From the NCBI RefSeq assembly GCF_003334765.1, contig NZ_QOWT01000003.1: 64,000 bases of DNA; one strand, written 5' to 3'. Below, piece by piece: positions 6,001 through 9,000 of the stretch (positions are counted from its first letter, which is position 1; each line of letters begins with the position of its first letter). Source of the DNA: Escherichia coli. GTDB taxonomy: Bacteria > Pseudomonadota > Gammaproteobacteria > Enterobacterales > Enterobacteriaceae. The position numbers were made by a program.

Positions 6001-9000
6001 CCTGCCAGCAACCAGAGCGCACGTTTATTGGCACCACGGAATTTTGCTCGCGCCACCATCTCTTGTCCGGTATAACAGCCTTTCTTAAAGCTGATACCGC
6101 CCAGCGCCTGGAGATTGGTCGCCTGTGGGATAAACTGCCCGCTGTTGGCGGCATCAATCACCGGGAAACCCGCTTCAATGTTTAATGCCAGCCACTGTTG
6201 GCTATTGTTCAGTTCCGCTTCACCGCGCAGTTTATCGGTCAGCATATTAGCAGTAGCTTCATCGGTTACGATCAGGAAACGTTCTGCCGGGTGTTCAAAC
6301 CATAGCAAAGTGGTCGCGCCTTCTTTGACTACCTGTTTTTCTTTCGAAGGCAGTTCGCTAAAGAGATTTGCCAGCGCGGCGCGCGCCTGAAAACCGGCAA
6401 CACCAAGCAGCACACGCTCGTCGTCTGGCGCGATGGTCACTTTAGAGAATACCGCATATTTTTTCAGTTCAGTCAGCTGCGGTTCACGCACGCTGCGCCG
6501 TTCAATCCATGCAAAGCCATCGCCGTCGCGGAACAGACGTAAATTGCTCCACATTTTACCTTTGGCGTCGCAATGGGCGGCGAGCAGGTGCTGATCTTCT
6601 GCCATCTGGCTGACATCTGCTGTCACCTGACCCTGCATATATTTTTCGCTGTCCGCGCCAGTAATGGTGGCAAGCGCCCAGTCATCAAGCGTCATCAGCG
6701 TCAGCGGTAAACGGGCAGAAGCCGTAGGCTGACGGGGAGGAAAAGGTGTAAAAGCCATAATAGAGTCCTGAGTTGCTTAACGGCGTATTAATGACTAATG
6801 GTAAAAGAGCTATGAGGCAATGCAAGTGCTTTCACTACGCGATCTGTGCCTTCTGCGAGGCGACTTCCAAAAAAATGAAGCCATTGAATTGTTGTGAATT
6901 AATTTCGCGATCGCGATGGTGTTTACTGATATTCCCGTAAAAGAAGGCGAAAAACACGTTACAATAGCCGGGTACTGGATTTTCGTGAGACAGGAAGAAG
7001 ATGGACATTAACAACAAAGCCCGCATTCATTGGGCATGCCGCCGTGGTATGCGCGAACTCGATATTTCAATCATGCCGTTTTTCGAACATGAGTACGACA
7101 GCTTAAGCGATGACGAAAAACGCATCTTTATTCGTCTGCTGGAATGTGACGATCCGGACCTGTTTAACTGGCTGATGAATCACGGTAAACCGGCCGATGC
7201 AGAACTGGAAATGATGGTCCGACTCATCCAGACACGGAACCGGGAACGTGGTCCTGTGGCAATCTGATTTGCGCGTCTCCTGGCGCGCACAGTGGCTTTC
7301 CTTGCTGATTCATGGGCTGGTTGCCGCTGTTATTTTACTCATGCCCTGGCCACTCAGTTACACCCCGTTATGGATGGTGTTACTTTCGCTGGTGGTGTTT
7401 GATTGCGTTCGCAGCCAGCGGCGTATTAATGCTCGCCAGGGGGAAATTCGCTTGTTGATGGACGGGCGTTTGCGTTGGCAAGGGCAGGAGTGGAGCATCG
7501 TCAAAGCACCGTGGATGATTAAGAGCGGCATGATGCTGCGTTTACGTTCTGATGGCGGTAAACGGCAACATTTATGGCTGGCAGCCGACAGCATGGACGA
7601 AGCTGAATGGCGGGATTTACGGCGGATTTTGTTGCAACAAGAGACGCAAAGATAAAGATGACGGCAAAGCATATGCGCTAAGCCGTCAGTGAGATCAGGC
7701 GTAATGCTCTGCCATTTCGTTGAGGATTTGCTCGCACCAGCTCTGAATACGCTCGTCGCTAAGGTCATACTGGTTAGTTTCATCCAGCGCCAGACCCACG
7801 AACAGTTGCCCGTCAGCAATCACCGGTTTCGGGCTGGTAAATTCATATCCTTCCGTTGGCCAGTAGCCGACGAACTTCACGCCTTTGGTCGAGAGTTTGT
7901 CATGCAGCATACCGAGCGCATCGAGGAACCACTCGCCGTATCCCAGTTGATCGCCAAGCCCATACAGCGCAACAATTTTACCTTCAAGGTTCAGGTCGTC
8001 GAGCTGATCCCAGACGGCTTCCCAGTCTTCCTGGATTTCACCAAAATCCCAGGTCGGGATACCCAGAATGAGCACATCGTACTGCTCCATTAATTTCGGG
8101 GAGTCGTCCTTGAGGTTATGTAAGGTCACCAGTTCTGGGCCGATAATATCGCGGATTTTTTCTGCCGCCATTTCGGTGTAACAGGTGCTGGAACCGTAAA
8201 AAAGACCCATATTCATAACGTAAGCTTCTCGATTCTGCTGTGGCTTTTGCGGCTAGTGTATCAGAATCGCTTTAGTCACGGCACAATAAGGCATAATGGA
8301 TCAAATGAGTGACCATAAGGGGCGCAAGTGAAACAGGATCTGGCACGCATCGAGCAGTTTCTTGATGCTCTGTGGCTGGAAAAAAATCTGGCTGAAAATA
8401 CGTTGAACGCTTACCGTCGCGATCTGTCAATGATGGTGGAGTGGTTGCATCACCGCGGGTTGACGCTGGCGACGGCGCAAAGTGACGATTTGCAGGCATT
8501 ACTGGCAGAACGGCTGGAGGGCGGGTATAAAGCCACCAGCTCAGCGCGTTTGCTGAGTGCAGTGCGCCGATTGTTCCAGTATCTTTATCGCGAAAAGTTT
8601 CGTGAAGACGATCCCAGTGCGCATCTCGCTTCACCGAAATTGCCCCAGCGTTTGCCAAAAGATTTAAGCGAAGCGCAGGTCGAACGTTTATTACAGGCAC
8701 CATTAATCGATCAGCCACTGGAGCTACGCGATAAAGCCATGCTTGAAGTGTTGTATGCTACCGGGCTGCGTGTCTCTGAACTGGTCGGACTGACAATGAG
8801 TGATATCAGCCTGCGTCAGGGCGTGGTACGGGTCATTGGTAAAGGCAACAAAGAGCGTCTGGTGCCGTTAGGTGAAGAGGCGGTTTACTGGCTGGAAACC
8901 TATCTGGAACATGGGCGTCCGTGGCTGCTGAATGGTGTGTCAATTGACGTGTTGTTTCCCAGCCAGCGTGCGCAGCAGATGACGCGACAGACCTTCTGGC

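Follow-up and report, generated by a model that had tools for sequence, protein, structure and literature searches.

The two overlapping genes sdhE and ygfX (also named ygfY-ygfX or cptB-cptA) are considered here in a stretch of 64,000 nucleotides of Escherichia coli DNA (contig NZ_QOWT01000003.1 of assembly GCF_003334765.1), which is referred to below as the window. SdhE promotes the covalent attachment of flavin adenine dinucleotide (FAD) to SdhA and FrdA (PMC5773532, PMC9557727, PMC5293155), and the E. coli ygfY mutant, which lacks succinate dehydrogenase (SDH) activity, fails to grow on succinate (PMC5293155). The original prediction for this locus mentioned an earlier description of the pair as a toxin-antitoxin (TA)-like module, which is an accurate account of the literature (Masuda et al., 2012, via PMC3827094 and PMC8621075; for Acinetobacter baumannii, PMC8132199). 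In the passages of PMC3827094 and PMC8621075 that cite Masuda et al. (2012), over-expression of YgfX in E. coli is said to give lemon-shaped cells, and YgfX to inhibit the polymerisation of FtsZ and MreB, an effect that YgfY counteracts. The type IV TA pair CbtA/CbeA (YeeV/YeeU), which like sdhE-ygfX consists of two small co-oriented genes, is likewise associated in the literature with inhibition of FtsZ and MreB and with lemon-shaped cells on over-expression. Taken together, the results presented below make it likely that sdhE-ygfX is a vertically inherited, core-chromosomal operon of two genes, in which the output of YgfX is coupled to that of SdhE and the reported toxicity is more probably an effect of over-expression.

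The window is a part of the E. coli chromosome. Over its first 25 kb it matches several genomes at 100%, so that their annotation carries over coordinate for coordinate, the 1.2 kb around sdhE-ygfX are 100% identical to many strains, and the locus is present as a single copy in 5426 of 5426 complete E. coli genomes. The pair is the operon already described in E. coli K-12 and in Serratia sp. ATCC 39006, without any difference. The RefSeq annotation of the identical E. coli sequence contains the same two coding sequences with the same boundaries, and hence the same overlap of 20 nucleotides. The gene identities, coordinates and overlap given in the original prediction were thus right, as judged by the open reading frame (ORF) listing, the family matches and the RefSeq annotation. 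The features on which the argument rests are the following:

7001-7267, plus strand: sdhE (ygfY/cptB), FAD assembly factor of 88 amino acids, with an ATG start and a TGA stop at 7265-7267 (ORF listing and RefSeq annotation)
7248-7655, plus strand: ygfX (cptA), inner-membrane protein of 135 amino acids, with a GTG start and a TAA stop at 7653-7655 (ORF listing and RefSeq annotation)
7248-7267, plus strand: dual-coding overlap of 20 nucleotides, GTGGTCCTGTGGCAATCTGA, read as the SdhE tail (R)GPVAI and stop in frame 0 and as M-V-L-W-Q-S-(D) of YgfX in frame +1

The frame of ygfX is therefore +1 relative to sdhE. The RGxxE motif of SdhE/SDHAF2 proteins is used to bind the flavoprotein subunit, and in the translation of the window gene it is present as R15-G16-M-R-E19; R14, R15, G16 and E19 are invariant in the alignment of SdhE and YgfX paired by genome. 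The sdhE product scores 198.4 bits over residues 1-88 of 88 against the NCBIfam model NF008130 (SdhE equivalog, curated cut-off 120 bits), matches Pfam Sdh5 (PF03937) at 5.8e-26, and matches the solved structures 1x6i (E. coli YgfY), 6c12 (SdhA-SdhE) and 6b58 (FrdA-SdhE) in the PDB at E values of 1e-51 to 1e-59. The full-length equivalog match, the RGxxE motif and the match to solved structures are features that it shares with the SDHAF2/Sdh5/SdhE family. YgfX matches Pfam PF07254 (Cpta_toxin) at 7.4e-50, its residues 2-131 aligning to positions 1-132 of the 133-position model, and the same family is matched by 40 of 40 aligned YgfX relatives. No NCBIfam model was found for YgfX.

Start codon and conservation of the overlap

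In the window, the ygfX frame is closed upstream by the TGA at 7212, and no ATG, GTG or TTG codon occurs in it before GTG 7248. The next in-frame candidate is TTG 7269 (codon 8), located 1 nucleotide past the sdhE stop. YgfX relatives were compared in two alignments, a family alignment of 40 representatives reaching down to 27% identity and a closer one of 10 sequences. The N-terminus MVxWQxxLRxS is conserved in the former, where S11 is conserved to at least 90%; in the latter V2 and L3 are invariant and W4 is conserved to at least 90%. As judged from these alignments, GTG 7248 is the true ygfX start, being the sole start codon that keeps the family-conserved N-terminus. It is highly improbable that the annotated start is wrong and that ygfX begins at TTG 7269, 1 nucleotide past the sdhE stop and without any overlap. 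This codon is in frame in the window strain but is not conserved; codon 8 is TTA, CTG, CTT, CTC or ATA in most other genera and is therefore not usable as a start there. Initiation at TTG 7269 is also disfavoured because it would remove conserved N-terminal residues. YgfX residues 2-7, which lie upstream of this codon, are conserved family-wide, residues 2-8 are modelled with confidence as a beta-strand, and no Shine-Dalgarno (SD) sequence precedes the TTG. This candidate was rejected, as the codon is not conserved whereas the N-terminal residues upstream of it are.

The species scan for YgfX relatives, made with the 10-sequence alignment and one genome per species, found relatives in 225 species, from which the best 80 loci were kept. 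These are all from Enterobacteriaceae, and with two further loci 82 were compared. The GTG start and an overlap of exactly 20 nucleotides ending in TGA were found in 82 of the 82 loci, and the 20-mer is almost invariant, so that conservation across Enterobacteriaceae, proposed together with the original prediction as a check, was confirmed. By this comparison, the overlap is conserved far beyond chance. Eight more distant loci (L083-L090) were retrieved individually, with the following YgfX identities and spacings:

L083, YgfX identity 59%: gap of 1 nucleotide, a stronger SD (AAGGAAG), and an SdhE without the RGPVAI tail
L084, YgfX identity 50%: overlap of 20 nucleotides
L085 (Providencia), YgfX identity 39%: overlap of 20 nucleotides
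L086, YgfX identity 36%: overlap of 20 nucleotides
L087 (Mixta), YgfX identity 38%: overlap of 20 nucleotides
L088 (Pantoea), YgfX identity 34%: overlap of 26 nucleotides as called
L089, YgfX identity 28%: overlap of 14 nucleotides
L090, YgfX identity 31%: gap of 30 nucleotides

The same overlap occurs in four of these distant loci, and it is therefore older than the split of the enterobacterial families. In Shewanella, a gap of 37 bp has been reported for ygfYX (PMC8621075). The gene sdhE was located directly upstream of ygfX and on the same strand in 90 of 90 loci (82/82 close and 8/8 distant), and tight juxtaposition of the two genes is, across the loci compared, the rule.

The end of SdhE encoded by the overlap is predicted to be unstructured, as the predicted local distance difference test (pLDDT) score drops beyond residue 83, and the crystallised SdhE chain of 6b58 aligns to residues 6-84. 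Where the overlap is lost, in L083, SdhE (829-1086 of that locus) has only 85 amino acids and the RGPVAI tail is absent. In the Mixta locus (2230-2520 of L087) the tail reads RGPERGAVAI, apparently through a short duplication immediately before the overlap. The loss of the tail in L083 together with the overlap, and the apparent duplication in Mixta, suggest that the SdhE tail is shaped by ygfX rather than by the function of SdhE. The short unstructured tail GPVAI, by which enterobacterial SdhE differs from the SDHAF2/Sdh5/SdhE family, would thus be there because ygfX overprints it.

The junction is also the region in which synonymous variation is the lowest. Across 81 species, the third-codon-position entropy of sdhE falls towards the end of the gene. 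It is 1.05 bits for codons 1-75 and 0.45 bits for codons 76-82, a single-coding stretch within the ygfX initiation region, and reaches 0.11 bits for codons 83-88, which form the overlap. The alignment entropy delimits one further feature:

7232-7273, plus strand: the most conserved 42 nucleotides of the operon, comprising the junction and the translation-initiation region upstream of it

The 21-nucleotide windows 232-252 and 253-273 of the sdhE-based alignment had mean entropies of 0.11 and 0.17 bits, respectively, against 0.31-0.75 bits elsewhere in sdhE. Within E. coli, the 60-mer 7228-7287 was identical in 5163 of 5426 genomes, and a control 60-mer from the middle of sdhE in 3579 of 5426. 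Variation is lowered upstream of the overlap as well, which argues that more than dual coding constrains the sequence, the simplest candidate being the ribosome-binding region. An SD-like GGAA is located there at 7236-7239 (-12 to -9 of the ygfX GTG), with an anti-SD duplex of -4.3 kcal/mol that ranks 13 of 22 local genes. The GGGAA at 7242-7246 is too near the ygfX start to serve as an SD.

Predicted fold of YgfX

YgfX is confidently predicted to form a PH-like sandwich, the first strand of which is separated from the rest by a membrane hairpin. The AlphaFold2 (AF2) model, with a pLDDT of 91, comprises a strand at residues 2-8, transmembrane helices at 12-31 and 36-62, six strands within 65-112 and a C-terminal helix at 118-134. 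The prediction thus contains the arrangement expected of the family, in which two transmembrane helices are followed by a soluble C-terminal domain (beta-sandwich and helix). In this model, the first strand of the PH-like domain is the part encoded by the overlap, inside sdhE. The bacterial membrane-anchored PH-like (bPH) proteins are resembled by YgfX in fold only and with modest Z scores (7-8); in YgfX, by contrast, the first strand precedes the membrane hairpin, so that the hairpin is an insertion within the domain. None of the 40 YgfX members matched the Pfam bPH families, and one weak match to DUF2244 (0.012) was obtained. The search of PDB sequences with the YgfX alignment profile gave only noise (connexins, E about 0.2-0.7) and no sequence relative, and no paper on a PH-like fold of YgfX was found in the literature searched.

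The possible complex of the two proteins was modelled with AF2 as a single SdhE-(GGGGS)5-YgfX chain with a linker of 25 residues, from a 25-row alignment paired by genome. Both parts folded confidently, and the predicted template-modelling score (pTM), obtained with this shallow paired alignment and without interface scores, was 0.47; therefore, SdhE was not docked on YgfX with confidence.

Coupling, dual coding and the toxin-antitoxin reading

From the arrangement and conservation of the junction, we infer with good support that ygfX is translationally coupled to sdhE, and this is the best-supported reading. The downstream start is located within the upstream gene, next to its stop and on the same strand, and this geometry is conserved (20 nucleotides in 82/82 loci and in four distant ones). 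The claim of the original prediction that the overlap indicates translational coupling was a reasonable inference, and it is strengthened by the deep conservation and by the suppression of synonymous change at the junction. In the proposed operon, sdhE provides the FAD assembly factor for covalent flavinylation of SdhA and FrdA, which is the established part, and ygfX would provide a small inner-membrane protein with a predicted PH-like domain split by a two-helix membrane hairpin. Translation of ygfX would be initiated at GTG 7248, 20 nucleotides before the end of the sdhE stop, behind the modest SD-like GGAA. Most likely, ribosomes that finish sdhE, or that unfold the junction in passing, would start at this GTG, and such coupling would tie the output of YgfX to that of SdhE. 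The overlap encodes at once the C-terminal end of SdhE, which is predicted to be unstructured, and the beta-strand with which YgfX begins in the model. Start codon, SD region and strand together would explain why about 40 nucleotides are nearly frozen across Enterobacteriaceae. The growth arrest seen on over-expression of YgfX would more likely result from over-production of a membrane protein than from a dedicated TA module.

Several observations weigh against this proposal. The SD-like match of ygfX is ordinary, its -4.3 kcal/mol being the same as that of sdhE's own, and independent initiation of ygfX is therefore possible. The RNA hairpin predicted over GGAA and GTG, which could hide the ygfX start in the manner of a classical coupling structure, is unsupported, as its stability does not reach significance (z = -1.69), AT-rich relatives lack it, and the sequence varies too little to reveal covariation. 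Inside the 20 nucleotides, reduced synonymous variation would also follow from dual coding by itself, which would leave the SD region upstream unaffected. For E. coli, toxicity with rescue has been reported (Masuda et al., 2012, as cited in a passage of PMC3827094), and A. baumannii homologues expressed in E. coli gave toxicity with rescue as well (PMC8132199). Finally, the crude AF2 fusion model lends no computational support to a direct SdhE-YgfX complex. The points on initiation are those on which another explanation would be built, namely that dual coding has frozen the overlap by accident, that ribosomes initiate on ygfX independently, with its weak SD and GTG, and that double protein-coding constraint alone lies behind the conservation of the junction. 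The GGAA stands at a workable distance with a duplex energy equal to that of sdhE, no significant RNA structure occludes the start, and some relatives keep both genes though these are 1, 30 or 37 nucleotides apart (37: PMC8621075). This explanation is nevertheless improbable, as the lowered synonymous variation reaches into the single-coding codons 76-82 of sdhE (0.45 vs. 1.05 bits), and GTG and exactly 20 nucleotides are kept in 82 of 82 species and in families at 36-50% identity. Moreover, in L083, where the overlap is missing, the stop is 1 nucleotide from the start and the SD is stronger (AAGGAAG), and the close coupling geometry therefore appears to be maintained. It is barely conceivable that the +1 frame relation serves programmed frameshifting to an SdhE-YgfX fusion protein. 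Fused ORFs of 166-217 amino acids with both Pfam domains do occur in metagenome and read-archive assemblies (P0002, P0003, P0005, P0008, P0013, P0022), but they are singletons or near-singletons (1-2 member sequences), each with a different junction, arising from deletions or indels at different sites. The sdhE-ygfX junction has no slippery or hungry-codon motif comparable to that of prfB, and in a fusion SdhE would be joined to the N-terminal strand of the PH-like domain. The fused ORFs appear to stem from indels or misassembly around the overlap rather than from a natural fusion, and a programmed frameshift was rejected, since the assembly fusions are singletons with different junctions.

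Type IV TA modules are defined by a toxin and an antitoxin that act on a common target without binding each other, and TA modules in general are usually, though not by strict definition, patchy in distribution, multi-copy and located on plasmids, prophages or islands. That sdhE-ygfX is a genuine module of this type (CptB/CptA), in which membrane-bound YgfX would inhibit FtsZ/MreB polymerisation, SdhE would counteract it at the target and the overlap would keep antitoxin synthesis ahead of that of the toxin, is considered unlikely. The layout does resemble that of TA operons, as the sequence contains an adjacent, co-oriented and tightly overlapping pair of genes for small proteins with the antitoxin gene first; the Pfam family bears the name Cpta_toxin; and the phenotype has been reported for E. 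coli (Masuda et al., 2012, in the citing passages of PMC3827094 and PMC8621075) and for the A. baumannii homologues (PMC8132199). Co-transcription of the pair has been shown in other species (PMC5042078, PMC8621075, PMC8132199). For Serratia, however, the relevant passages of PMC3985639 (citing McNeil, 2013) and of PMC5042078 report an interaction of SdhE with YgfX and no TA phenotype, and the interaction itself conflicts with the non-interacting type IV definition (PMC3985639). In Shewanella, neither toxicity nor rescue was observed, no interaction of YgfX with FtsZ/MreB and none of YgfY with YgfX was reported, cells without ygfY were viable, and removing ygfX as well did not alter the phenotype (PMC8621075). 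E. coli likewise tolerates deletion of ygfY, simply losing SDH activity (PMC5293155), with polar effects on ygfX not excluded. In a survey of 950 E. coli genomes, CptA_toxin was one of a small number of "toxins" that every sequence type carried (PMC10790755).

The genomic behaviour of the locus also differs from that usual for TA modules, as sdhE-ygfX is a universal, single-copy, syntenic core locus that is essentially absent from plasmids and phages. Among 72,556 plasmid records, ygfX was found in 12, of which six are chromosome-sized (about 4.1-5.4 Mb), three measure 0.69-0.79 Mb and three, at 51-157 kb, have the size of ordinary plasmids; the two matching records of the phage collection are both chromosomal fragments. 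The chromosome-sized "plasmid" records (H9-H11, H16, H19, H20) make up half of the 12 apparent plasmid copies, which calls for caution in naming genes plasmid-borne. The pair is retained in reduced endosymbiont genomes, the synteny ygfZ / sdhE-ygfX / fldB is kept across families, and the PADLOC defence models match neither SdhE nor YgfX. SdhE homologues are known from alpha-, beta- and gamma-proteobacteria and from eukaryotes (PMC5042078), a range wider than that of the ygfX loci examined, of which the nameable ones are all Enterobacterales. The comparison with CbtA/CbeA leads in the same direction. That pair resides in cryptic prophages and is multi-copy and patchy, whereas sdhE-ygfX belongs to the core genome, in one copy and with fixed synteny. 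Its "antitoxin" can be deleted and has a task of its own in enzyme assembly (PMC5293155), and the toxicity of YgfX was not reproduced in two other genera. Therefore, the TA description in the original prediction is a fair summary of one line of the literature, but it is contested by the Serratia and Shewanella work, a dispute that the original prediction passed over, and the genomic evidence points away from it. The locus behaves as a core housekeeping operon and not as a selfish or mobile TA module, by which over-expression toxicity is not disproved. In a more speculative and rather doubtful extension, YgfX would be a non-toxin, membrane-anchored split PH-like adaptor, its synthesis locked to that of SdhE by the ancient overlap, and would act with SdhE at the inner membrane, e.g., in the transfer of flavinylated SdhA/FrdA to the membrane subunits or as a sensor of the quinone or lipid state. 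In that case the reported toxicity would be an artefact of over-expression, and ygfZ/sdhE/ygfX/fldB a cluster for complex II cofactor maturation.

Flanking elements and meaning of the operon

The neighbourhood of sdhE-ygfX contains trhA (plus strand), ygfZ and fldB (both minus strand), xerD, dsbC and recJ. The immediate neighbours and the two flanking elements are as follows:

5778-6758, minus strand: ygfZ, divergent upstream neighbour, with synteny kept in 7 of 8 distant loci
7695-8216, minus strand: fldB (flavodoxin 2), convergent downstream neighbour, with synteny kept in Providencia, Mixta, Pantoea and L083
6950-6966, plus strand: conserved block in the ygfZ-sdhE intergenic region, with a -10-like TACAAT at 6960-6965, conserved to 80-95% across 80 species
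7659-7688, no strand assigned: hairpin TGACGGC...GCCGTCA in the 39-nucleotide gap between the convergent ygfX and fldB stops

The complete order of divergent ygfZ, sdhE-ygfX and convergent fldB (5778-8216 in the window) is kept in Providencia (L085), Mixta (L087) and Pantoea (L088), and three of the four genes of this arrangement concern redox cofactors (Fe-S/folate, FAD and flavodoxin). The TACAAT has no good -35 at the usual spacing, and the consensus scan of 6600-7850 found no sigma-70 promoter at its thresholds. The block at 6950-6966 may be regarded as a candidate promoter element of sdhE-ygfX, perhaps an activator-dependent one. In Serratia, the operon is activated by FlhDC (PMC5042078). 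The same scan gave two terminator-like matches, both inside ygfX and at chance level, and missed the hairpin at 7659-7688, which is stable when folded over 7645-7705 (-21.1 kcal/mol, z = -5.06; none of 200 shuffled sequences was as stable). This hairpin is probably the fldB terminator, because the T-rich tail is present on the minus strand only, and at most it would provide a 3' end or stabiliser for sdhE-ygfX. Other features of the window were recorded alongside:

5599-5676, minus strand: match to naRNA4 (Rfam RF02564), 75 bits against a gathering score of 59.5, in the trhA-ygfZ intergenic region
11789-12887, plus strand: prfB, annotated with its well-known programmed frameshift, the coding sequence being joined from two pieces
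15061-15132, plus strand, and 15129-15254, minus strand: the tiny annotated ORFs yqfH and yqfG, respectively, convergent and overlapping by 4 nucleotides
49014-49087, plus strand: tRNA-Gly (anticodon CCC), the sole transfer RNA gene in the 64 kb

Summarizing, databases and papers already contain both genes, their overlap and the TA claim, and for this reason the locus matters little as a discovery. What is added to the known operon is the depth of conservation of the overlap, which is now quantified, and the predicted split PH-like fold of YgfX. The results also call for caution towards the Pfam name Cpta_toxin and the TA catalogues, which propagate a classification unsupported by the genomic behaviour of the locus. 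Moreover, because the 20-nucleotide overlap and the GTG have been frozen since before the enterobacterial families diverged, sdhE knock-outs are likely to disturb the expression of ygfX and need careful design.

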